Made by a program: the position numbers and the translations under genes. A stretch of 64,000 bases of DNA from an uncultured Candidatus Saccharibacteria bacterium (lineage in GTDB: Bacteria > Patescibacteriota > Minisyncoccia > UBA6257 > 1-14-0-10-44-23), in assembly GCA_964394435.1 (NCBI GenBank), contig CAYMXN010000002.1:14196-78195 (forward strand), given 5' to 3'. Every line of letters begins with the position of its first letter. Positions within the stretch are counted from its first letter, which is position 1. The notes beneath the pieces are model-generated. The model was not told the DNA's origin and did no database searches. It saw only the letters and a program-made list of their open reading frames with translations. Shown in pieces: positions 2,175 through 59,932 of the stretch.

Positions 2175-2600
2175 TTACTTCTCGACCTCGATACCCATGT
2201 TGCGGGCGGTACCTTCGATGATGCGCATCGCTGCTTCATCGCTGTTGGCGTTGAGATCTGCCTTTTTCTGTTCGGCGATTTTCTTAACGTCAGCCTTGGT
2301 TACCTTTCCGACTTTCGTCGTGAGCGGGTTTCCACTTCCCTTTTCGATACCGGCTGCTTTCTTTAACAGCGCAGAAGCTGGAGGAGTCTTGAGGATGAAA
2401 TCAAACGTGCGGTCTTCGTAGATAGTGATAACGGCTGGGATTGTGTCACCGGCCATCGTCTTAGTTGCCTCGTTAAATTTCTTACAAAAATCCATCAGGT
2501 TGATACCATGAGGACCGAGAGCGGTTCCGATTGGAGGCGCTGGGTTAGCAGCTGCTCCCTGAATCTGGAGCTTGACGACTGATTTTACTGGTTTAGCCAT
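2175..2600 (-). CDS. rplK: 50S ribosomal protein L11
   Basis: 141 aa. [42 protein letters not shown] matches L11 along its length. Confidence 0.95.
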
Positions 2601-2609
2601 ATAATTTGT

Positions 2610-3191
2610 TTATAGTTTTTGCACTTGGAGACTGTCGAGTTCGAGTACGGTATCACGGCCGAAGATTGGAATAACCACTTTGATTACTGCACTCTTCTCG
2701 TCTACCTGACTGACTTTCGCCTCCTGGTCCTTAAATGGACCGTCGGTAATTTTTACCATGTCGCCTACAGCTAAGTCAACCGTAAAGCGCTTTTCGCCAC
2801 CACCCATCTTCGCCATCAAGCTATCAACTTCAGCCTGCGAGAGTGGGAGTGGAGTGGTCGTGTCAGAGCCGACAAATCCGGTAACGCGTGGCGTGTTTCG
2901 CACTACGTACCAGCTGTCATCGGTGAGAATCATATCAACGAGCACATAACCTGGAAACGTCTTTTCTTCGATCTCCTGGCGCTTGCCGTTTTTGATCTTA
3001 ATCTTCTTTTCCTTAGGAACGACAACACTGAAAATCTTATCGCCCATTTGGAGGCTGTCGACACGCTGGTTCAAATAGCGCGCAACTGCGTCTTCATATC
3101 CAGAGTACGTGTGTACCGCGTACCAGTGGCGGCCAGTGCTTCCCTGCTGCTTACCTCCGGTCGGAGCCTTTTTGTCCTTTTTTTCGTCCAT
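2610..3191 (-). CDS. nusG: transcription termination/antitermination factor NusG
   Basis: N-terminal WYAVHTYSGYE NGN motif and C-terminal KOW (GDMVKITDGPFKDQEAKV). Conserved secE-nusG-rplK order. Confidence 0.92.
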   Translation of the reverse strand: MDEKKDKKAPTGGKQQGSTGRHWYAVHTYSGYEDAVARYLNQRVDSLQMGDKIFSVVVPKEKKIKIKNGKRQEIEEKTFPGYVLVDMILTDDSWYVVRNTPRVTGFVGSDTTTPLPLSQAEVDSLMAKMGGGEKRFTVDLAVGDMVKITDGPFKDQEAKVSQVDEKSAVIKVVIPIFGRDTVLELDSLQVQKL

Positions 3192-3205
3192 AGGAAATGT
3201 ATAAA

Positions 3206-3394
3206 TTAGACGACTAATATTTTGCCTAAGAGATAGCTAAATGCGTAATCAAATACACCCAGGTAAATAGCTACAATGAGCGCGATCGCGATGACGGTAA
3301 TCGTCAAACCACGGGTTTGCGCGAAGGTTGGCCACTGGATGGACTTAAACTCCTGCTTGGCACCAATAAAGTATTCTTTGACTCGTGAGAACAT
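3206..3394 (-). CDS. secE: preprotein translocase subunit SecE
   Basis: 62-aa protein with a single TM helix, immediately upstream of nusG as in most bacteria. Confidence 0.8.
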   Translation of the reverse strand: MFSRVKEYFIGAKQEFKSIQWPTFAQTRGLTITVIAIALIVAIYLGVFDYAFSYLLGKILVV

Positions 3395-3434
3395 ATTGCT
3401 AGAGATTATACGATAAAGTTGGACAAAAAGTCAA

Positions 3435-5492
<2,058 letters not shown>

Positions 5493-12651: not shown

Positions 12652-13266
12652 CTACTTACCCTCCCTGCTCGCTAGACCGTATTCAGCAACAATCTTATTA
12701 GCAAACTTCCAGTCGAGATTTTTAAAGAATGAGTCGATATACGCCTTACGGCTCGTGCCGTAATCAATAAAGTACGCGTGCTCGTACACATCTAATACGA
12801 TAACCGGAACTGCTGCCCAAACTGCTCCGACGTTGTGCGCGTCTGAAGCGTAGTTGTGCAAGCGGTTGTCCTTGAAGTCAAAAGCGGTGATCGCCCAGCC
12901 ACGCGCTGAAAGTCCCGTAGCAACAAGATCGGCCTTCCACTCATCAAGCGAGCCAAAGTCGCGCTCAATCATTTTCACGAGCTCACCTTCTGGCTTACCG
13001 TCGCCGCTTAAGTGACCAAAATATACTTCGTGCAGCTTCATTCCGTTAACTGCAAACGTCTCTTCGCGCTTAAGCTCACCAACTAAGCTATATACGCCAT
13101 TAGCCTCACTCTTGTCCGCCGTCTCAAGCTTAGCCTGAATCTCGTTGGTCTTTTTTACATACCCTTCGTACAGCTTAAAGTGCTGCTCGAGCATTTTTAC
13201 ACTAATCCCATCAATATCTTTCGTAAACGGAAACTTATCAGCTATAAAATCTTTTCTGTTTTTCAT
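12652..13266 (-). CDS. sodA: superoxide dismutase [Fe/Mn]
   Basis: Metal ligands in context (HHxKHH-type N-domain, DVYEHAYF near the C-terminus). 204 aa. Confidence 0.93.
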   Translation of the reverse strand: MKNRKDFIADKFPFTKDIDGISVKMLEQHFKLYEGYVKKTNEIQAKLETADKSEANGVYSLVGELKREETFAVNGMKLHEVYFGHLSGDGKPEGELVKMIERDFGSLDEWKADLVATGLSARGWAITAFDFKDNRLHNYASDAHNVGAVWAAVPVIVLDVYEHAYFIDYGTSRKAYIDSFFKNLDWKFANKIVAEYGLASREGK

Positions 13267-13298
13267 TTGTTTTGGGTTGAATTATCCCGTTAGAGGTA

Positions 13299-13407
13299 AT
13301 TATTAATAATTATTTCCAAGACTATACACCTTAATAGATTTTTATCATTATATCACCGCGAAAGTACGGATGTGCTTTAAGCACATCCTACCTCTAACGG
13401 GACGCCC
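13299..13407. repeat. inverted-repeat-bounded element (CCCGTTAGAGG ... CCTCTAACGGG), copy 1, in the sodA promoter region
   Basis: Perfect 11-bp terminal inverted repeats 98 bp apart. The same termini bound two further elements at 40726-40853 and 41107-41235. Confidence 0.55.
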
Positions 13408-13467: not shown

Positions 13468-13941
13468 CTAGCGAGTTACCGAGATCGTCTGTCCGAGCTC
13501 TGCCGATGGAGCAGAAACCGTCACGCGACCAGTCGTACCACCGGTCTGACTGACGTAGTAGCCGGAGTTGTATGAGCTCGTCGAGGTCCAAGCAGCATTC
13601 GCAGCCGATGGGTCAAACGGCATAGATGGAATATACGTGTCTACTAAACAAGGACCGATATTGTAGCCACCCGAAGACGCCATAAGACTCGAGCTAGCTG
13701 GAATTGCCGATCCGCAAGTAAAGACACCACGGTTATCAGCCATATTTTGGCCAATAGCGTTAAGGATCGCGTTCACGTTCGCAGAGCGCTGCGTGTTGCG
13801 AGCCTGGGCAAACTGACGGGCTGGGTTCAAAGCTACGATGACGACAGACGCCAAGATAGCGATGATACCGATTACTACTAATAACTCAATAAGCGTAAAA
13901 CCCTTCGACTGACTCAGGACGATGCCTTTTTGTTTGTTCAT
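13468..13941 (-). CDS. pilA: type IV pilin (major pilin paralog 1, extended leader)
   Basis: Class III signal peptide MNKQKGIVLSQSKG/FTLIELLVVIGIIAILA with Glu at +5. Divergent C-terminal domain. Confidence 0.85.
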   Translation of the reverse strand: MNKQKGIVLSQSKGFTLIELLVVIGIIAILASVVIVALNPARQFAQARNTQRSANVNAILNAIGQNMADNRGVFTCGSAIPASSSLMASSGGYNIGPCLVDTYIPSMPFDPSAANAAWTSTSSYNSGYYVSQTGGTTGRVTVSAPSAELGQTISVTR

Positions 13942-13997
13942 ATGGTAGAAATTATATCATATTCTGTTCAATTCCCTATCTAGGCTTATCCACAAAC

Positions 13998-14026
13998 AAA
14001 AAGAGCCCGTTGGGCTCTTTTTGTTT
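13998..14026 (-). terminator. intrinsic terminator after pilin gene 2
   Basis: AAAGAGCCCG-TTG-GGCTCTTTTTG. Confidence 0.6.
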
Positions 14027-14034
14027 GCTCATGA

Positions 14035-14484
14035 CTAGCGGCTAACGGAAATTACCTGGCCCAACTCTTGAGCTGGGGCGGCAACCGTTACGCGACCACT
14101 GGTCGCATCACGCAAAACTGTGTAACCAGTCTTGTATGAGCTCGTCGAGGTCCAAGCAGCATCTGCAGCTGATGGGTCAAACGGCATAGATGGAAGGTAG
14201 GTCGTGACTAAGCAAGAAGCGATGTCGTAACCACCTGACGAAGCCATCTCTGTCGCGGTTGATGGCAAAGCGCCGGCACCACACGTCCAGTTACCACGGT
14301 TATCGGCGATATTCTGACCGATAGCGTTAAGGATCGCGTTAATGTTCGCAGAGCGCTGCGTGTTGCGAGCCTGGGCAAACTGACGGGCTGGGTTCAAAGC
14401 TACGATGACGACAGACGCCAAGATAGCGATGATACCGATAACCACGAGAAGTTCGATGAGGGTGAAACCCTTTTGTTTGTTCAT
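14035..14484 (-). CDS. pilA: type IV pilin (major pilin paralog 2)
   Basis: MNKQKG/FTLIELLVVIGIIAILASVVIVALNPARQFAQARNTQRSAN. 97 nt are identical to paralog 1. Confidence 0.88.
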   Translation of the reverse strand: MNKQKGFTLIELLVVIGIIAILASVVIVALNPARQFAQARNTQRSANINAILNAIGQNIADNRGNWTCGAGALPSTATEMASSGGYDIASCLVTTYLPSMPFDPSAADAAWTSTSSYKTGYTVLRDATSGRVTVAAPAQELGQVISVSR

Positions 14485-20917: not shown

Positions 20918-21125
20918 AGCGATATATCTATTATAGTACAGTTTCATTTCGCTCACGAACAAAACCGGCGCATATTGCGAAAATATGTCAAAATCTATAG
21001 AATAACGGCACGCTTCAATATCGGTAGCCAAGTGCCCCTTCTCTGCACTTCGTGACGATATTGTGGGCTCGCCAAACCGAAAGTCTTAATCAAAAGGACT
21101 GTAGGTGCTGAGCGCAGTGAAGCAT

Positions 21126-21167
21126 TGCCAGATCGCCTGCCTGCGCAGGCAGGTCTAATGGTAGGAC
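21126..21167 (+). pseudogene. duplicated 5' fragment of tRNA-Gln (nt 1-24) interrupted by an 18-bp perfect palindrome
   Basis: TGCCAGATCG[CCTGCCTGCGCAGGCAGG]TCTAATGGTAGGAC matches the first 24 nt of the intact tRNA-Gln at 21425, apart from the palindromic insertion. Confidence 0.6.
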
Positions 21168-21171
21168 TAAT

Positions 21172-21420
21172 ATGTGGCACGTCTATCTTCTAAAAAGCCA
21201 GAAACAAAAATGGTATTATGTCGGGAGTACAAACCGACTCGAAGAAAGACTTAGCGAGCATAATCAGGGTCGAGTGCGATCGACTAAGAGCTATCGTCCA
21301 CTAGATATTGCCTACGCTAAGGAGTTCGGAAGCGAGAAAGAAGCGAGAAGTTATGAGAGAATGATAAAAGACAGGCGCATACTAAAGGAAGCGATTGTAC
21401 GAGAAATTGAAGGAAGGTAA
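21172..21420 (+). CDS. GIY-YIG nuclease family protein (YhbQ/Slx1-like, 82 aa)
   Basis: WHVYLLKS...KWYYVGSTNRLEERLSEHNQG is the GIY-YIG signature. The gene fills the gap between the tRNA fragment and the intact tRNA exactly. Confidence 0.8.
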   Translation: MWHVYLLKSQKQKWYYVGSTNRLEERLSEHNQGRVRSTKSYRPLDIAYAKEFGSEKEARSYERMIKDRRILKEAIVREIEGR

Positions 21421-21424
21421 ATAT

Positions 21425-21495
21425 TGCCAGATCGTCTAATGGTAGGACAGCGGACTCTGAATCCGCGAATCTTGGTTCGATTCCAGGTCTGGCAG
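21425..21495 (+). tRNA. tRNA-Gln (anticodon CUG)
   Basis: Manual cloverleaf: acceptor TGCCAGA/TCTGGCA, D arm GTCT..GGAC, anticodon stem GCGGA/TCCGC with loop CTCTGAA, T arm CTTGG-TTCGATT-CCAGG. U1-A72 as in bacterial tRNA-Gln. Confidence 0.85.
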
Positions 21496-21551
21496 CAAAG
21501 TTAAAATAGGTTCGGAGTCCGAGGAGCTTAACAGATTTAAATAATTAAATT

Positions 21552-39415: not shown

Positions 39416-39913
39416 TTAAACTATCTCCATCTCATCTTTATGCCTCGCTTTTATCAGCCCGCGCCCTTCTTTTGCCCGCTTACTTAAAACCCGATTTCCT
39501 CTTCCCCTCCCTCTATTCAAACCAGCATACGTTGCAGTAAGCGAATCGCAATTTGGACAGATCAACCGTAAATTCCTTTCGCTATTATTACGCCAATTCC
39601 CATCAATATGATCAGCTACTAATGGAGAGTATCCTATCTTCGTGTTAATTTTTGCCCATCCACAGAGACAGCATTTATCTTCAAATTTCCGCCTTAAATA
39701 TCTCTTGATGTATCCCGATACAATACCAAGACCTTGTAGCCCGCTCACCTCTCCCGCCTGCCACTTTTTTATATACAGTTGATACTGATATTCAATCTGG
39801 CAAGCATTACTACAATACTTGTATTGAGAACGTGCAGTTTGGCTACCGCATAAGAGACAAGCGGCTCTCGGCTTTTTAATTTGAGGCATACTAATATACT
39901 TCAATATTATCAA
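39416..39913 (-). CDS. HNH endonuclease
   Basis: CxxC...HIDGNWRNNSERNLRLICPNCDS is the HNH/His-Me finger with a zinc-binding Cys pair. Probable start at MPQIKK. Confidence 0.8.
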   Translation of the reverse strand: MIILKYISMPQIKKPRAACLLCGSQTARSQYKYCSNACQIEYQYQLYIKKWQAGEVSGLQGLGIVSGYIKRYLRRKFEDKCCLCGWAKINTKIGYSPLVADHIDGNWRNNSERNLRLICPNCDSLTATYAGLNRGRGRGNRVLSKRAKEGRGLIKARHKDEMEIV

Positions 39914-40151: not shown

Positions 40152-40721
40152 TTAACGCGTCAGTAGCTCACCTTCTTGCCATTGATAACTGGCGAGGAAG
40201 ATACTGACATCTGCGTCTTTACGCTTCTGTAGTATCCAATCATTTAGATTGGTTTTTTGCAAGATAAGCGAACTGCTTAAGATATTTCGCTGCGCCTGTG
40301 GAACTAAAATAAGGCGGGTAAAATCTCCGGGCATCAGACCATAGAGCTCGTTGATCGCTGGCGCGAGAGCTTGCGAGCTGGTTGTATTACCAATCATTTT
40401 CGAAAGGTCTTCTTCTCCCTGTTTGCCAAGCGTCAGAAATCCAGCCTCTACGACCTTATTTTCAATAAGCGTATCAAGACTTACTCGACGGAGTTCGATT
40501 AAAAACTTCGGATCAGCTAATTTTTCTTTTTCAGCAACAGAAGCGTTTCTCGAGGCTTTCTCGTAATAGTGATAGGCGGCATCAAAATGCTTCTGTACAT
40601 CTCCCGCCCAGATCATCTCACCGTTTACGCTTGCAACTGGATATAAATTAAAAACACTCGCAAAGTATACAATCCCGAAAATACCAACAAGCGCGGCAAG
40701 AATAATCGCGGTTCGTTTCAT
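40152..40721 (-). CDS. hypothetical secreted/membrane-anchored protein (189 aa)
   Basis: N-terminal TM/signal MKRTAIILAALVGIFGIVYFASV. The start codon abuts the end of IR element copy 2. Confidence 0.5.
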   Translation of the reverse strand: MKRTAIILAALVGIFGIVYFASVFNLYPVASVNGEMIWAGDVQKHFDAAYHYYEKASRNASVAEKEKLADPKFLIELRRVSLDTLIENKVVEAGFLTLGKQGEEDLSKMIGNTTSSQALAPAINELYGLMPGDFTRLILVPQAQRNILSSSLILQKTNLNDWILQKRKDADVSIFLASYQWQEGELLTR

Positions 40722-40725
40722 TGCG

Positions 40726-40853
40726 CTAGAGGCAATCCTGATGTTGTATAAGCGACCGGTAGGAGTTCATAGGTATTGATATATTGTAGCGTATATTCGT
40801 ATGTAGCATCGGCGGCAGAGCCGCTCTGCCTCTAACGGGATTCATTGGTAGTT
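40726..40853. repeat. inverted-repeat-bounded element, copy 2 (GCGCTAGAGG ... CCTCTAACGGG)
   Basis: About 128 bp and about 90 percent identical to copy 3 in direct orientation. The right terminus contains the stop codon of the ftsB-like gene. Confidence 0.6.
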
Positions 40854-41113
40854 GAAGGCACGAGAATAAAGAGCTTCTCGTCTGGCTTCTTGTAATTAAA
40901 CTGGGCGGTAGATTCTTTGGCAAGATTTGGATCTTGACGATAGTACTCAAGGTCCTGCTCAAGCTTAGCATTTTCCGCCTCGAGCGCCTTCATCTGCAGA
41001 CCCAACTCGTCTGAACGCTTAGTTAGCTCATTTTTCTGATCAATAAGCTGGTATAGCTGAAAGCTTGCAAAGACTAGAATAGCAGCTAAAAACAATATGA
41101 GAAAGAATTTCAT
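40832..41113 (-). CDS. FtsB/DivIC-like septum formation initiator (TM plus coiled coil, 93 aa)
   Basis: N-terminal TM helix followed by a coiled coil (ELGLQMKALEAENAKLEQDLEYYRQD). The gene is bracketed by IR element copies 2 and 3. Confidence 0.55.
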   Translation of the reverse strand: MKFFLILFLAAILVFASFQLYQLIDQKNELTKRSDELGLQMKALEAENAKLEQDLEYYRQDPNLAKESTAQFNYKKPDEKLFILVPSTTNESR

Positions 41114-41235
41114 CCCGTTAGAGGCAACTCTTATATTGTATAAGCGACCGGTAGGAGTTCATGGGTATTGATATATTGTAGCGTATATTCGTATATAGCA
41201 CGGGTGGCAGAGCCGCCCTGCCCCTAACGGGATGA
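41107..41235. repeat. inverted-repeat-bounded element, copy 3 (CCCGTTAGAGG ... CCCCTAACGGG)
   Basis: On the minus strand the terminus CCTCTAACGGG is directly followed by the ATG of the ftsB-like gene. The internal sequence carries TACAAT/TATAAG -10-like boxes. Confidence 0.6.
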
Positions 41236-54577: not shown

Positions 54578-54753
54578 GATTACCTTTCTCCCAGTGAAAT
54601 ACTGAGGCTTGGAGAAAAATGTCAGTAAATATTATACAATACTTCTCAATTTTTGCAATTCCTAACTAAGAATTCAACCAGATGCGTTTTAAAATAATAA
54701 CGCCCCGAACCTCTTGCGAAGGCGCGGGGCAGGAACGAGGCGAGACGCGAAGA

Positions 54754-55104
54754 CTAGGGCCGCTGACCAACCAGCTGGGCCACCAACCTCTTCGTCTTCG
54801 GATCGCCGCGGCACTCGAAGCTCCACGTCGGCTCGCCGTGACGAATGAGATTGTTCGGAGGAAGCTGGATCTGGATGGATCCTTCCAAGCCCTGAACGAT
54901 CGCATTCGCAGAAACGTGGACGTCCGGGTAGATGAGGATGCTGAGAACCACGCGCCTCTCCGAGGCATCATGACCCTCCATCTCGAAGTTCATCTGCATG
55001 AACATCGAACTGAGCTCGAGTTCACGCCCTGGGATGAGGGGCAGGCACGCGCGGACCATCTCGAGCGCGAACACAACACTTCTGCTGAGTTGGATCTTGG
55101 ACAC
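54754..55104 (-). CDS. hypothetical cytoplasmic protein, GC-rich cassette F (116 aa, GTG start)
   Basis: Perfect TTGACA-17-TATAAT promoter upstream, GGAG 7 nt before the GTG, GC-rich hairpin terminator downstream. The (+) overlapping ORF reads as an Arg-rich antisense artefact. Confidence 0.5.
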   Translation of the reverse strand: MSKIQLSRSVVFALEMVRACLPLIPGRELELSSMFMQMNFEMEGHDASERRVVLSILIYPDVHVSANAIVQGLEGSIQIQLPPNNLIRHGEPTWSFECRGDPKTKRLVAQLVGQRP

Positions 55105-55170
55105 GAGAAACTCCTGTCAAAGGAGGCGCATGGGCGAGCTGCCCACACGAATGCCGTCAAAGCATTAGAT

Positions 55171-55201
55171 ATATTATACTCTTAATTATGATAAGTGTCA
55201 A
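55171..55201 (-). promoter_or_regulatory. consensus sigma70 promoter (TTGACA-17-TATAAT) for cassette F
   Basis: Minus strand reads TTGACActtatcataattaagagTATAATat. Confidence 0.6.
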
Positions 55202-55256
55202 TAGTAAATAGCCCTTGTTTCAAGGTTTTTGTAGCTTCCTAGTACTAAATAAGCTA

Positions 55257-56561
55257 CTAGTCTACCCTCTGAATATCCGCACCGAGACTGCGAAGGCGTT
55301 CATCAAGATACTGATAGCCACGGTCGATTTCTTCAACACCGGTAATGGTCGACGGACCTTCGGCGATAAGTGCGGCGATGACATTTACCATACCGCTGCG
55401 TAAGTCCTTAACGGTTGTGTCGGCGGCTTTCAGTTTGGTCGGACCACTGATAATCGCGCTGTGTGGAAAGTTTTGTCCGTTGAATCGGCAAGTTAGCTCA
55501 CCCATACATTTAGAGAGCACTTTGATATCCGCGCCCATGCTATTTAAATCTTTCGTGTAGCTAAAACGGTCTTCGTAAATTGTTTCGTGAATAACCGAGA
55601 GGCCAGCGGCTTGAGTAAGCACAACTGAAAATGGCTGCTGCCAGTCAGTCATAAATCCCGGGTGAGTGTCGGTTTCGATTTCGATACCCTTGAAGTGTTT
55701 TAGATTTTTCGGTCGATAAAAAACGATACCATCTTCGCGCACCTCGTACTCCCCTCCGATACGGCGTACCGCGTTTAAAAAGGTGATGAGGTCGTGCTGG
55801 CGCGCGTCTTTAACCAGCACCGGCCCACCACAGGCGAGACCGAGACAGGCGAAACTTACCGCTTCGTTGCGGTCCGGGATAATCTTGTGCTTTACGCCAT
55901 GTAGGCGCTCAACACCCTCAACGCTAATAACACGATTAGCTCCGCGCTCGATAATCGCGCCCATATTTTGGAGCATCTTAATCAAGTCAACGATTTCCGG
56001 CTCAACGGCGCAGTTGTTAATCACCGTGCGCCCTTTCGCGAGTACGGCGGCGAGAATCGTATTTTCGGTAGCGCCGACGCTCGGAAACTTTAAATCGATA
56101 CGCGTACCTTTGAGGCCGTTTTTCGCAATCGCATAATAACTGTTTTCACGCACTTCGATTTGCGCACCCATCGCGGTTAACGCAGCGAGGTGTAAATCAA
56201 CCGGACGTGGGCCGATCTTGTCCCCGCCTAAAAACGGTACTTCGGCTTCGCCAACGCGTGCGAGCAAAGGACCGAGCGCGAGAATTGGAATACGATTACG
56301 ACGAGAGAGTGAAACTACGCGATGATTTTTTATTTTCGGCGTGCTAATGGTGACCACCGACCCGTCACGCTTCACATTGCTACCAATCGCCTCGCAAAGC
56401 TCGGTAACAATTTCCGTCTCACCAATATTTGGAGCGTTTTCGATTACACACTCGTCTTCAGTTAAGAGCGTAGCGATCATCGCCTTACTGATACTGTTTT
56501 TCGCGCCAGCTAAGGTGATTTCTCCGGTTAGATTTTTTCCACCGTTAATAACGAATCTCAT
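55257..56561 (-). CDS. murA: UDP-N-acetylglucosamine 1-carboxyvinyltransferase
   Basis: 434 aa. Active-site loop with Cys (LACGGPV... / KNSISKAM.. pattern) and EPSP-synthase fold repeats. Confidence 0.93.
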   Translation of the reverse strand: MRFVINGGKNLTGEITLAGAKNSISKAMIATLLTEDECVIENAPNIGETEIVTELCEAIGSNVKRDGSVVTISTPKIKNHRVVSLSRRNRIPILALGPLLARVGEAEVPFLGGDKIGPRPVDLHLAALTAMGAQIEVRENSYYAIAKNGLKGTRIDLKFPSVGATENTILAAVLAKGRTVINNCAVEPEIVDLIKMLQNMGAIIERGANRVISVEGVERLHGVKHKIIPDRNEAVSFACLGLACGGPVLVKDARQHDLITFLNAVRRIGGEYEVREDGIVFYRPKNLKHFKGIEIETDTHPGFMTDWQQPFSVVLTQAAGLSVIHETIYEDRFSYTKDLNSMGADIKVLSKCMGELTCRFNGQNFPHSAIISGPTKLKAADTTVKDLRSGMVNVIAALIAEGPSTITGVEEIDRGYQYLDERLRSLGADIQRVD

Positions 56562-56622
56562 ATAGCTCTATAGTACTTTACTCCTATGTACTAAGTACAT
56601 AGCCTGGTGGTATTCTATATAT

Positions 56623-56976
56623 ATGATTTCACGTATTATCCGCTCGCTGATCGCTAATGGTATCGCGTTTGCGCTCGCCGCCTACTTTTTACCGGGATTT
56701 GTTCTTTCGGGAGATATTGTCTCCATAGCAGCGCTTGTCCTTGTCTTTACCGCGATTAACGCGTTTATCTATCCAATTATCAAGCTTGTCTTGAGTCCGA
56801 TCATCTTTTTCACTCTCGGACTCTTTACGATTGTCATTCACGCAGGAATCCTCTATATCATTGACATTTACTCTACAAACATTAGTATAAGTGGACCAAT
56901 TACCCTGCTCTACGCGACCCTGATTATTACCGCAGTTAACATCCTGTTCGGCGTAGGCAGTAAACTATCTAAGTAA
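56623..56976 (+). CDS. phage-holin-4-2 / DUF360 (YvlD-like) family membrane protein
   Basis: 117 aa, 4 TM helices. The N-terminal pattern LIANGIAFALAAYFLPGFVLSG matches YvlD-like proteins. Confidence 0.55.
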   Translation: MISRIIRSLIANGIAFALAAYFLPGFVLSGDIVSIAALVLVFTAINAFIYPIIKLVLSPIIFFTLGLFTIVIHAGILYIIDIYSTNISISGPITLLYATLIITAVNILFGVGSKLSK

Positions 56977-56980
56977 TCAT

Positions 56981-57205
56981 ATGCAAACAATCATCTCAAT
57001 CGCTCAAATCGTCGTTTCGGTTCTTTTAATGATCTTGATCCTTCTTCAGGAGCGTGACAGCGATATGTCTGGATTTTTAAGCGGCGGTAGCGCCGGTGGT
57101 GGTTTCTATCAACAGCGCCGCGGCCTCGAGAAAGTCATGTTCTATGCTACGATTATTTTAGTGTTCGTATTCGCAGGTTTGGCGCTTGCCAGCCTTTTCG
57201 TCTAG
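56981..57205 (+). CDS. secG: preprotein translocase subunit SecG
   Basis: 74 aa with two TM helices, LLQERDSDMSGFLSGGSAGGGFYQQRRGLEK central loop. Confidence 0.78.
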   Translation: MQTIISIAQIVVSVLLMILILLQERDSDMSGFLSGGSAGGGFYQQRRGLEKVMFYATIILVFVFAGLALASLFV

Positions 57206-57286
57206 ACCCTCCTCTCGTCGGAATCGATTTTTGTTTTGAATTAGCTCTCGTATCATTAGGAGCTTACTCTTTTATATCTCGACTTC

Positions 57287-58945
57287 ATGTTTTCCGATAT
57301 TGTCAGTCTTCTCAAATCCCTAACCCGACGCGAACGACTAGTCTTTTTTGGCTCGGTCCTCATTTTTTTCGTCGCTCTTATCTTTACACTCATTGCTGTT
57401 TTTTATCGCAATACGGTACTCGAACCAGCCCAGGGTGGTGAGTATCGCGAAGGACTTGTTGGTCAGCCGGTAGTCATCAACCCGATTCTTGCGGGCAATA
57501 ACGATGTCGACCGGGACTTATCAGAAATTTTATTTTCAGACCTCATTACGCTTGCCGACCGCTTTGCGACGAGCACTGACGGAAAAACATTTACGATTAC
57601 ACTCAAGCCAGATCTTCGCTGGAGTGATGATGAGCCGCTCACCTCTGACGATGTTATTTTTACGCTTGAGATGATTCAAAATCTCGACACCAACTCCCCG
57701 CTTCTTACCAACTGGCAGGGTGTAATTGCGGAGCGTTTGAGTGAGCGCGAAATTCGCTTTACCATTCGCACCCCATACGCGTTTTTCATCGACAACTTGC
57801 GCATGCTCCGCCCGATTCCAAAACATATCTTTGAAAGTGTTCCACCGGCCAATCTCCGTCTCTCAACATACAACCTTGAGCCGATTGGCAGCGGGCCGTA
57901 CCAATTTAGCCGATACGAAAAACAAAAGACCGGATTCCTCTCTTCTTACGTCCTCGAACTTAATCACAACTTCGCAGGCACGAAGCCACACATTCAGACT
58001 ATTCGGCTCGTCTTCTACCAAACCTACAAGGATGCGCTAACCGCGTTTAATACGAAAGAGATTGATGGCTTGGGCGGACTCGACCCTGCGCAACTCCCCG
58101 ATTTACGTGTTGTACATCAGATTTTTGAACTCAATATTCCTCGCTACTACGCGATCTTCTTTAACCAGACCGTTCAGCCGCTCCTTAAAGAGCTCGCAGT
58201 ACGCCAAGCCCTTGAGCTCGCAACTGACAAAGAAGAGATTATTAAAGCGGTGTTTGATAATCACGCACTCATTGTTAACGGCCCACTCCTTCCTTATATC
58301 GAAGGATATGATGCGGCCAGGTATGCGAGCGATACGCTCTCGCTTGAGCTCGCCTCTTCAACACTCAACAAGGCTGGGTGGAAGCTCGGTGACGACGGAA
58401 TACGCGCCAAGACGGTCAATAAAACTGTCCAGAGACTTTCGTTTGAAATCGTAGTTCCGCAAATTCCTTTCCTAGTTAACACCGCCAACCTACTCAAGGC
58501 GCAATGGGGAAAAGTTGGTATCGAACTCACGCCTATCGTGCTTACCCCGCAAGAAGTTGCCAATAATGCGATCAAGACTCGTAGTTATCAGATGCTTCTT
58601 TTTGGAAACATTCTTCGTGGCAATCCAGACATCTTCTCCTTCTGGCACAGCAGTCAGCGCTTCTCGCCAGGACTTAACTTATCGCTCTATGAAAATAAAT
58701 CGGTAGACGCCCTCCTCGAGTCACTTCGCAAAGACAGCAAAAAGGAGTCTCGCCAACAGAGCCTCGCTAAGATTCAAAAATCAATCGCAGACGATCGCCC
58801 AGCTATCTTCTTGTACTCGCCAACCTATCTGTATGCCGGCCCGAAAGACTTAGGTGGATTTGGTGCGCCATTTATCACCTCGCCCGCAGAACGTCTCCGC
58901 ACTATCGAGTCCTGGTATCTCGAAACGACTCGCGTCTTTAAATAA
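57287..58945 (+). CDS. ABC transporter substrate-binding protein, family 5 (peptide/oligopeptide-type)
   Basis: N-terminal TM anchor, then the SBP_bac_5 fold (e.g. LRWSDDEPLTSDDVIFTLE.., GSGPYQFS..). Confidence 0.82.
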   Translation: MFSDIVSLLKSLTRRERLVFFGSVLIFFVALIFTLIAVFYRNTVLEPAQGGEYREGLVGQPVVINPILAGNNDVDRDLSEILFSDLITLADRFATSTDGKTFTITLKPDLRWSDDEPLTSDDVIFTLEMIQNLDTNSPLLTNWQGVIAERLSEREIRFTIRTPYAFFIDNLRMLRPIPKHIFESVPPANLRLSTYNLEPIGSGPYQFSRYEKQKTGFLSSYVLELNHNFAGTKPHIQTIRLVFYQTYKDALTAFNTKEIDGLGGLDPAQLPDLRVVHQIFELNIPRYYAIFFNQTVQPLLKELAVRQALELATDKEEIIKAVFDNHALIVNGPLLPYIEGYDAARYASDTLSLELASSTLNKAGWKLGDDGIRAKTVNKTVQRLSFEIVVPQIPFLVNTANLLKAQWGKVGIELTPIVLTPQEVANNAIKTRSYQMLLFGNILRGNPDIFSFWHSSQRFSPGLNLSLYENKSVDALLESLRKDSKKESRQQSLAKIQKSIADDRPAIFLYSPTYLYAGPKDLGGFGAPFITSPAERLRTIESWYLETTRVFK

Positions 58946-58948
58946 TCC

Positions 58949-59932
58949 ATGAACTCACTCGATCGCTTTGAAAAGCACATTTTCACCCTTGGCGAGCAGT
59001 TTTCGCCGAGTGCGGTTATCGTTGAAGACGTAAAGCAGCTTAAAGGCGCAAAGCCTGATGTAGTGGTGCTTTGTGGCATGGGCGGCTCGGGGATTCCGGC
59101 CGCGGTCTTGCAAAATATCGCAGAGTATGCTAATATAACTATACCGTTAGTTTCTTGGCATGATTTCGGCTTGCCTGCCCTTTCCTCCTATAGGCGGCCA
59201 CTCTTCATTTTTGTTTCCTTTTCCGGAGACACCGAAGAGACACTTTCCAGCTTTGAATTGGCACACAAAGCAAAGCTACGAGCGGTTGTCACTAGTGGTG
59301 GCAAGCTACTGGATCACGCACGCACCGAAGGGATAGCGCGTGCGATCGTTCCGGTTGCGCCAGGTATTTTAGCTCGGCAAACGAGTGGTGCTCTTCTTTA
59401 TGGAGTCCTATCGATACTGCAAGCCGTACTAACTACCACTGCCCTCCCTGATCTTTCAAACTCACTCCGCCCAGAGCTTTTTCGCACTATCGGCAAAGAT
59501 ATCGCCCGCGAACTGCTCTATAAAACGGTTTTAATCTACACCCCTACGCGCGAAAGCCATATCGGGCAGCTGATTAAAATCCAGCTGAATGAGTCGGCAA
59601 AAACACCGGCCTTTGCAAACACGTATCCACATATAAATCATTTTGAGATATCGGGGTTTGATCGAAAGCCGCAACACTTTGTCGCGCTACTCCCTGCGAG
59701 TCAGCATCAAAACGCGATTACTAAGAAGCTCTTAAAAATCGTGCGCGAAACACTTGAAAATGATGGGGTCAAAACAATAACCGTGAGCATCCCTGGGGAG
59801 AGCTCACTGGAAATTGTCGCTAACTCGTTTATACTGGCAAATTGGATTGGCCTTGAGCTTGCGAGACTGCTTAACCTCGACCCTTCGCAAAATGAGACGG
59901 TCGCTAAAATTAAGCGGAAGCTGCGAAGCTAG
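58949..59932 (+). CDS. SIS-domain bifunctional phosphoglucose/phosphomannose isomerase
   Basis: CGMGGSG and SFSGDTEET motifs of the archaeal-type PGI/PMI family. Confidence 0.68.
   Translation: MNSLDRFEKHIFTLGEQFSPSAVIVEDVKQLKGAKPDVVVLCGMGGSGIPAAVLQNIAEYANITIPLVSWHDFGLPALSSYRRPLFIFVSFSGDTEETLSSFELAHKAKLRAVVTSGGKLLDHARTEGIARAIVPVAPGILARQTSGALLYGVLSILQAVLTTTALPDLSNSLRPELFRTIGKDIARELLYKTVLIYTPTRESHIGQLIKIQLNESAKTPAFANTYPHINHFEISGFDRKPQHFVALLPASQHQNAITKKLLKIVRETLENDGVKTITVSIPGESSLEIVANSFILANWIGLELARLLNLDPSQNETVAKIKRKLRS

Follow-up and report, generated by a model that had tools for sequence, protein, structure and literature searches.

In a 64,000-nt stretch of DNA from an uncultured Candidatus Saccharibacteria bacterium (positions 14,196 to 78,195 of contig CAYMXN010000002.1, GCA_964394435.1; hereafter the window), three short elements bounded by inverted repeats lie close upstream of genes that are all found on the minus strand. 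Copy 1 (13285-13402) is located between the terminator of an upstream pilin gene and sodA, which encodes a Fe/Mn superoxide dismutase (12652-13266, minus strand). Copy 2 (40721-40840) is located between a divIC/ftsB-like gene (hereafter divIC; 40832-41113, minus strand, 93 aa, PF04977) and a gene encoding a 189-aa SurA_N-like protein (40152-40721, minus strand), and copy 3 (41113-41232) between the terminator of a SIMPL gene and the ATG of divIC, which is bracketed by copies 2 and 3 as initially annotated. All three are on the plus strand when read in the sense of the ancestral cassette described below, which for copy 1 is antisense to sodA, and none contains a conserved open reading frame (ORF). 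We argue here that these elements are very probably non-autonomous, ORF-less derivatives, resembling miniature inverted-repeat transposable elements (MITEs), of a mobile cassette that is widespread in Patescibacteria, also known as the Candidate Phyla Radiation (CPR).

When the window was searched for the terminal sequence CCCGTTAGAGG, exactly or with one mismatch, five sites were found, all of them at the three elements; 100 shuffled controls gave 0.79 sites on average and reached five only once. Allowing up to three mismatches per terminus, the only real pairs in the window were again those of the same three elements. Counting an outer, covarying T:A pair, the elements are 118-120 bp long, rather than about 128 bp as originally given, and have the layout (Y)CCCGTTAGAGG...CCTCTAACGGG(R). 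The 11-bp inverted repeat that the initial annotation assigned to each of them is real in all three cases, but the termini are exact in copy 1 alone, since copy 3 has one mismatch (CCCCTAACGGG) and the left terminus of copy 2 has three (TGCGCTAGAGG). The true inverted repeat extends over 14 nt in copy 1 and over 17 nt, at 94% identity, in copy 3, terminal arms in general measuring 12-17 nt.

In copy 1, whose span had been placed at 13299-13407, the termini occupy 13286-13296 and 13391-13401 inside the outer pair T13285:A13402, with a TACGG motif at 13365-13369 and a hairpin GGATGTGC-TTTAA-GCACATCC at 13368-13388. Copy 2 has its degenerate 5' terminus at 40722-40732, its 3' terminus at 40829-40839 and a hairpin at about 40810-40830, and copy 3 has its termini at 41114-41124 and 41221-41231 and a hairpin GGGTGGC-AGA-GCCGCCC at 41202-41218. 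Copies 2 and 3 are in direct orientation and 89% identical over 126 nt (88.3% in a global alignment), close to the initial estimate. Copy 1 was correctly described as having an unrelated interior: its identity to the other two is at background (60-64%), what they have in common being the termini and a GC-rich hairpin beside one of them.

Distribution and insertion hallmarks of the family

Scanning one genome per species for paired exact termini spaced by 85-115 nt returned more than 117 loci among the matches listed, against about 8 expected by chance according to our own estimate, and nearly all of these loci are in Patescibacteria. The hosts comprise Paceibacteria, Kaiser-, Lloyd-, Azam- and Yanofskybacteria, as well as metagenome-assembled genomes (MAGs) labelled Saccharibacteria. 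Up to four contigs of a single MAG carried a copy among the matches listed, and the window has three copies in 64 kb. Element sizes show a sharp peak at 100-139 nt; interiors are AT-rich and unrelated between subfamilies. The outer base pair is complementary (T:A or C:G) in 119 of 120 elements aligned on their ends, and a YAG(G) motif plus hairpin follows one terminus in 100 of the 120, giving the elements a polarity.

Duplication of the target was apparent in most of the family, with an exact 4-nt direct repeat flanking 79 of the 120 elements, usually the TGAA of a start codon, and 3- or 5-nt repeats flanking several others. When only left flanks other than TTCA were considered, the repeat was exact in 33 of 60 elements, whereas permutations gave 4 on average and never more than 10; GTTGAC/GTTGAC, GCAAGC/GCAAGC and ATTGCAT/ATTGCAT are examples of such duplications. 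In the window, copy 2 is flanked by TTCA on both sides, at 40717-40720, where it is the reverse complement of the TGAA in the ATGAA start of the SurA_N-like gene, and at 40841-40844.

The orientation of the elements relative to their neighbors is strongly biased. In 81 of 100 short elements, the hairpin end coincides exactly with the start of an ORF of at least 60 aa that runs in the same sense as the former nuclease gene, whereas a divergent gene abutting the other end was found at only three (81 against 3), namely at the loci that we number L030 and L092 and at window copy 3; copy 2 is arranged alike. The neighboring genes themselves are diverse, as the same termini adjoin hundreds of unrelated genes across Patescibacteria. 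Upstream ORFs (uORFs) ending at the TAA inside the 3' terminus are enriched (21 versus 9.3 expected), yet they are present in only 21 of 74 elements, and a general translational coupling via a uORF starting at a vestigial ATG was rejected on that basis. Compensatory change in the termini was likewise not retained as proof of pairing, since one subfamily variant (GAAG/CTTC) dominates and the other deviations are one-sided. In about 900 kb of loci, no pair of termini at insertion sequence-like spacing enclosed a classical transposase (DDE or HUH), and neither the short nor the cassette pattern had a match among the 2.9 million viral contigs of IMG/VR, which we searched for phage carriage.

Several variants of the architecture were also observed. 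Very short versions of 46-62 nt, with the same termini or the GAAG variant, are found at L096 (4478-4523), L069 (about 4050-4113) and L102 (1254-1316), and an apparently nested composite of about 240 nt at L061 (3199-3439); one of these four shows a GTTAA target duplication. At L003 (3986-4085), like termini (CCCGTTAGAG ... CTCTGACGGG) surround a complete tRNA-Thr(UGU) gene (3995-4068) and not a nuclease gene or decayed sequence. Other termini delimit an element of about 120 bp upstream of divIC in L118 (3868-3990; ATTCGCGAACGTAGCGAAT) and an element in L120 (about 2313-2425; CAACGAAT) flanked by ATGAAT and ATG, and a GIY-YIG gene stands between 22-bp inverted repeats (CCCGGTAGGACAATTTCGAAT) in L039 (about 3950-4290). 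The CCCGTTAGAGG family may be one of several families with a like layout and different termini.

Filled and empty sites in related genomes

Comparison with related genomes showed that the three window copies are separate insertions, each of which is absent from some relatives. In L254 (GCA_964523595) and L257, the SIMPL gene is followed by 71-75 nt, divIC, 3 nt and the surA-like gene, with neither of the divIC-flanking elements, while both sites are filled in L255 (GCA_964602135) as they are in the window, the copy 3 site being orthologous. Between filled and empty alleles, divIC identity is 96.7% (L255 filled, L257 empty) or 87.2% (window filled, L254 empty), so that the gain or loss of elements there is recent. 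The copy 2 site is empty in L254, L257 and the more distant L118, where divIC overlaps the next gene (caATGAag), which corresponds to an unoccupied copy 2 target. Three different elements are found at this divIC/surA-like junction: the antisense copy 2 in the window, a sense element with termini CCCGTTAGAAG/CTTCTAACGGG in L255 and a sense element in L120-L123, indicating that the site was hit repeatedly. The sodA site is empty in L260, with a gap of 60 nt between the terminator and the ATG. Conversely, an element of the copy 2/3 type is located at the start of murA in L030 (about 85% identical to window 54691-59377) and is absent from the window. Beside that murA element, L030 also has about 930 bp (2572-3505) that are absent from the window, which has 61 bp of intergenic DNA instead; this stretch comprises a repetitive run (..cctcg.. 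motifs) and a possible ORF of about 160 aa for a membrane protein.

These insertions remodelled the 5' regions of sodA, divIC and the surA-like gene in the window relative to its relatives, with the elements occupying nearly all the space between the upstream terminators and the start codons. Two of them abut start codons, as the initial annotation had noticed: the ATG of divIC abuts copy 3, and the A of the SurA_N-like ATG is the outer base of copy 2. The start of sodA lies 19 nt (13267-13285) below the inverted repeat of copy 1. The divIC coding sequence was modified as well: its TAG stop codon (40832-40834, minus strand) lies inside the 3' terminus of copy 2, and the C-terminal ESR plus stop consist of the target duplication and the element terminus. 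In alleles with an empty site the protein has 91 aa and a TNQ end; those with a filled site read into the element terminus and give 93 aa, with (E/P)SR as the last residues. The stop codon and spacer of the empty allele are gone in the window.

The -10-like boxes initially reported inside the elements do exist. Scanning for consensus sigma-70 promoters, however, did not give a complete promoter in copy 2 or copy 3, and the match in copy 1 was marginal (9/12); there, the -10-like box TGATATAAT has its TATAAT hexamer on the minus strand (13347-13352). In a set of 100 oriented family members, hexamers of the -10 type were about as frequent on one strand as on the other (63 versus 71 elements). 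A conserved sigma-70 promoter inside the element was discarded on these grounds, and promoter donation by the window elements is possible. Empty divIC alleles have their own TATAAT 8-12 nt before the ATG, so that copy 3 now parts the native promoter from the divIC start. Just upstream of copy 1 (13468-14484), two tandem genes encode type IV pilin-like proteins of 157 and 149 aa, a recent duplication with repeats that are 82-88% identical at a spacing of about 565 nt.

A GIY-YIG nuclease cassette with the same termini

The same termini also bound a cassette with one gene, encoding an 86-aa GIY-YIG nuclease, which we first met through unpaired termini in the loci. Four loci (L046, L115, L124 and L127) have a GIY-YIG ORF (PF01541, E 1e-18) between these termini. 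In L046 and L115, CCCGTTAGAG is followed by 3-7 nt, an ATG and 86-88 codons ending in AAG CGY TTC CTN TCT CTA ACG GG plus stop; the 3' terminus of the cassette encodes the last residues of the nuclease, SLTG (..FLSLTG). L124 reads tATGAAT/CCCGTTAGAG...CTCTAACGGG/ATGAATaag, the slashes marking the cassette ends, and continues into a host gene of 224 aa that overlaps the nuclease gene by ATGA. L127 has the same type of layout with termini CACGTTAGAG/CTCTAACGTG.

A metagenome scan for this full-length architecture returned more than 120 further cassettes among the matches listed, with lengths of 272-284 nt and modes at 275 and 278. Among those listed, the nuclease stop falls on flank bases 2-4 (GGG A/TGA) in 99 of 121, the start codon at the junction is ATG in 79 of 118 and GTG in 10, and an ATG is found six bases upstream in 56 of 118. 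An exact 4-nt repeat flanks 57 of the 118 listed cassettes, where permutations gave 28 on average and at most 37, and 12 more cassettes have repeats of 3 or 5 nt.

The nuclease belongs to a protein family of 4,532 clusters (E<=0.001), mostly of exactly 86 aa, several of which are named 'GIY-YIG nuclease family protein [Patescibacteria group bacterium]'. The best 120 of these 4,532 clusters are 72-94% identical to the query, and 78 of the 120 have an [SP]LTG end. Ten gene calls start with MNPVRE or MSPVRE, where ATG AAT CCC GTT AGA G corresponds to a host-type ATGAA, a T and the 5' terminus, in frame; two proteins, P0045 and P0077, have Ile in place of the internal Met, showing that translation must begin at the upstream ATG. 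The consensus is that of a minimal GIY-YIG domain whose C-terminal tail is basic. Among proteins with a solved structure, the UPF0213 proteins are closest in sequence (PDB 1zg2, BH0048, E 1.2e-8; 1ywl, EF2693, E 9.5e-4), and the cassette protein has a weak profile match to PHROG 314 'homing endonuclease' (E 1.4e-3).

Several lines of evidence connect the short elements to this cassette. In 95 cassettes, the mid-gene codons for RKR (CGG AAR CGY) can pair with those for the near-C-terminal KRF (AAR CGY TTC), forming GGAARCGY/RCGYTTCC. Synonymous third positions 160 nt apart covary within this pairing: one pair of sites is AT in 50 cassettes, GC in 41 and different in 4, the other is CG in 67, TA in 24 and different in 4. 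Neighboring wobble sites 3 nt apart, used as a control, are nearly independent. This covariation demonstrates selection on a long-range stem inside the coding region. Removing its loop (about 156 nt) from a 275-nt cassette predicts an element of about 119 nt, and the mode of the short elements is 115-118 nt. Their architecture, ...TACGG-hairpin-TR-CCTCTAACGGG, can be followed in L109, whose ..CTACGGAAGCGCTGCGCTTCCTACCTCTAACGGG compares with the mid-gene GATTTACGGAAGCGCTT and the 3' end AAGCGCTTCCTAACTCTAACGGG of the cassette. Aligning short elements to a four-cassette profile with nhmmer, which replaced a gap-tolerant global alignment that was too noisy, showed that those of L107 and L109 match cassette positions 1-97 and 255-275, and that the 3' ends of a dozen others match positions of about 206-275, including window copy 1 (248-275). 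The hairpin, with at least 6 of 8 positions paired, is found in 59 of 100 short elements compared to 4 of 100 shuffles; at least 7 of 8 are paired in 39, with 25 distinct arm sequences.

The sole GIY-YIG gene of the window (21172-21420, plus strand, 82 aa, PF01541 E 3.5e-16) is 35% identical to the cassette nuclease, has different ends and scores below the cut-off of TIGR01453. It lies directly upstream of a tRNA-Gln(CUG) gene (21425-21496) and is preceded by a duplicated 5' part of that tRNA (ATTGCCAGATCG..TCTAATGGTAGGAC), which is split by an 18-nt palindrome (CCTGCCTGCGCAGGCAGG); the arrangement at 21109-21496 suggests that a second GIY-YIG element, different from the first, inserted into a tRNA gene and restored it. 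Between prfB and a tRNA-Thr/tRNA-Gly pair, a 165-aa ORF (39416-39913, minus strand) appears by eye to be Cys-rich with H-N-type motifs (..HIDGNWRNN..CPNCD..), which suggests an HNH-type endonuclease, possibly another selfish gene beside tRNAs.

Interpretation, alternatives and known systems

The family membership of the window elements, their insertion polymorphism, the target duplication and the ends and architecture that they have in common with the cassette are observed directly, and the MITE-like character proposed at first is borne out by the dispersed family with inverted termini and 3-5-nt duplications, the empty sites in relatives and the gene-carrying partner with the same termini. 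More tentatively, and with slightly less than even confidence, we propose that the cassette of about 275 bp represents a new class of prokaryotic transposable element, with the window elements of about 118 bp as its MITEs. Its sole protein, the 86-aa GIY-YIG nuclease, would recognize the folded ends of the cassette, which would be built to land on start codons, borrowing the ATG and ribosome-binding site of the host gene and returning translation to it through the ATGA overlap, a design that would allow thousands of copies across the CPR.

In the typical case, the parent cassette with its 12-bp inverted termini is found right at a host start codon, between two copies of the TGAA of ATGAA. The upstream target copy can supply the nuclease ATG (MNPVRE...), and the nuclease stop overlaps with the re-created host ATG (GGG-A/TGA-A), an overlap suggesting that the host gene stays translated by stop/start coupling. 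A sense insertion would thus use the start signals of the host for the nuclease and hand the ribosomes back at the host ATG. The short form appears to be the cassette minus its stem loop, with both termini, a decayed 5' stretch of about 75 nt and the hairpin beside the 3' terminus left in place. Both forms prefer TGAA at start codons and usually duplicate it, and both would be mobilized by the GIY-YIG nuclease, possibly via recognition of folded ends; the 4-nt repeat could result from a staggered cut or from microhomology-guided repair. The window copies have the rare orientation, antisense to the genes that they abut: copy 2 split the divIC/surA-like junction, copy 3 landed between the native divIC -10 box and the ATG, and copy 1 in the short leader or promoter region of sodA. 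Transcription of the window genes may start at the native promoter and run through the whole element as a folded leader, whose terminal stem would place the 5' end close to the ATG, or it may start at a fortuitous promoter inside the element.

A number of observations weigh against this interpretation. The database scans demanded exact termini, so that part of the conservation seen there stems from the search itself. About one third of the family has no direct repeat, one class has inverted flanks (TTCAT...ATGAA), and the direct repeat is absent at copies 1 and 3, the flanks of copy 3 being an inverted extension (TCAT/ATGA). The pattern of filled and empty sites could reflect loss instead of gain. 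Most short-element interiors have no cassette similarity detectable by nhmmer or global alignment, the homology residing in ends, architecture and size. No full-length cassette with these termini was found in the 64-kb window, where the copies contain no GIY-YIG ORF. Finally, we know of no GIY-YIG protein that acts as a transposase in bacteria.

We considered whether the elements could be a conserved, structured cis-regulatory RNA and not mobile DNA, that is, a 5' leader acting on translation or stability of the gene behind it through a long closing stem and an inner hairpin. Folding argues for such a role in part, since copies 1 and 3 fold far better than shuffles (z -4.6 to -6.9), although copy 2 does not (z about -1.3); the inner stem covaries at synonymous sites in cassettes and the hairpin is retained in short elements. 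Most family members also stand directly before a start codon in one orientation, and uORFs ending at the TAA of the 3' terminus occur at about double the expected frequency. The window copies, however, are antisense to their own genes, and the genes downstream of family members are mutually unrelated. Rfam 15 identified only four tRNAs in the window at the gathering threshold and, at E<=10, only terminator-like chance matches that all fall outside the elements. The flanking target duplications, and presence or absence among genomes whose flanking genes are 87-97% identical, also speak against a leader RNA, and we regard this explanation as improbable. Selection nevertheless clearly acts on RNA or single-strand structure inside the element, and RNA structure may be part of the biology of the mobile element itself.

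Two DNA-based alternatives are more improbable still. The initial annotation had also raised the idea of a paired operator coordinating sodA with division genes, and identical termini about ten helical turns apart, directly upstream of three genes and conserved as sequence and not merely as pairing, would suit a regulator of sodA, divIC and the surA-like gene that loops about 105 bp of DNA. This proposal does not fit with the occurrence of the same termini beside hundreds of unrelated genes, with close relatives that have the same genes and no sites, with the 3' terminus being coding sequence in the parent cassette or with the degenerate terminus of copy 2, and it now appears very unlikely. 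About equally unlikely is an inverton, in which a site-specific recombinase would use the inverted repeats to flip a promoter segment. Such a switch might be suspected because the repeats enclose AT-rich DNA that contains -10-like boxes and adjoins start codons, and because the divIC/surA-like junction element of the window is oriented oppositely to those of L255 and L120. The oppositely oriented junction elements have unrelated interiors that are only 60-63% identical, showing that they are different insertions and not flips; furthermore, the orientation bias of the family is strong, no recombinase association was seen, and target duplications together with empty sites point to insertion. A diversity-generating retroelement, with copies 2 and 3 as template and variable repeats, was also rejected, since by eye their differences are not adenine-specific.

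CPR/Patescibacteria genomes are about 1 Mb in size and are commonly portrayed as streamlined, with few classical insertion sequences. Considering its scale (over 117 loci in genomes and over 120 cassettes in metagenomes among the matches listed, and about 4,500 protein clusters), the family would be a major overlooked source of genome change, and also of assembly breaks and gene mis-annotation, such as 'MNPVRE' N-termini and the altered divIC C-terminus. If a minimal GIY-YIG protein truly mobilizes these elements, this would provide a function for UPF0213/YhbQ-type proteins and add a nuclease-based mechanism to the known transposition chemistries. A start-codon-targeted and translationally coupled design would also illustrate how a selfish gene can enter essential operons without killing its host. 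We found no description of the cassette or its derivatives in Rfam, in protein-family and structure searches or in the titles and abstracts of the literature on GIY-YIG or MITE together with CPR/Patescibacteria (including the text of PMC12455944), an absence that is no proof of novelty; the cassette and its elements are apparently undescribed so far.

Among known systems, the window elements most resemble the bacterial MITEs that reshape 5' regions, such as the Correia elements of Neisseria, the pneumococcal RUP and the enterobacterial ERIC/IRU. Like these, they are about 100-150 bp long, have no ORF, have terminal inverted repeats, produce short duplications, occur in many dispersed intergenic copies near gene starts, would form a long hairpin when transcribed and may alter expression. 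All of those known families trace back, or have been attributed, to insertion sequences with a DDE transposase, and the target duplicated by Correia elements is TA. In contrast, the partner with the same ends carries only the 86-aa GIY-YIG nuclease gene here, the preferred target is the TGAA of a start codon, the orientation bias is strong and the internal hairpin comes from a coding-region stem. Integron cassettes are similar in having small promoterless ORFs and imperfect, folding inverted repeats, and the terminus core resembles GTTRRRY/RYYYAAC. An attC identity was nevertheless rejected, since the order of the core sites is reversed (GTTAGAG ... CTCTAAC, not RYYYAAC ... GTTRRRY) and copies lie dispersed at the starts of genes instead of forming an array at attI; no integrase association was seen.

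From the side of the protein, free-standing and intron-encoded GIY-YIG homing endonuclease genes (phage T4 seg, I-TevI) offer a parallel, as small selfish genes between host genes or at their edges that are patchy among close relatives. Homing endonucleases are larger, have added DNA-binding domains, target a single cognate allele and lack both terminal inverted repeats and target duplications, whereas the present family occupies hundreds of different sites, has 12-bp inverted termini and includes ORF-less derivatives, the link between the two consisting of weak profile matches. UPF0213/YhbQ-type proteins (1zg2 and 1ywl, both deposited as hypothetical with no assigned function) are in the same size class as the cassette protein and also have a single GIY-YIG domain; to our knowledge, they have not been described as cargo of repeat-bounded mobile cassettes. 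As for the IS200/IS605 group, with its palindrome-associated transposable elements (PATEs) and repetitive extragenic palindromes with their associated transposases (REP/RAYT), folded sub-terminal hairpins seem to matter and short ORF-less derivatives are abundant in both cases, so that by analogy a structure-recognizing enzyme acting on single-stranded ends is plausible here. That group has no terminal inverted repeats, no target duplication and an HUH Y1 transposase, its PATE or REP derivatives inserting 3' of a fixed tetra- or pentanucleotide, and an IS200/IS605-derived PATE or REP origin was rejected because the present family has inverted termini and variable duplicated targets that match on both sides. 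We assign the window elements to the MITEs, a known kind; their parent cassette could represent a new class of transposable element.

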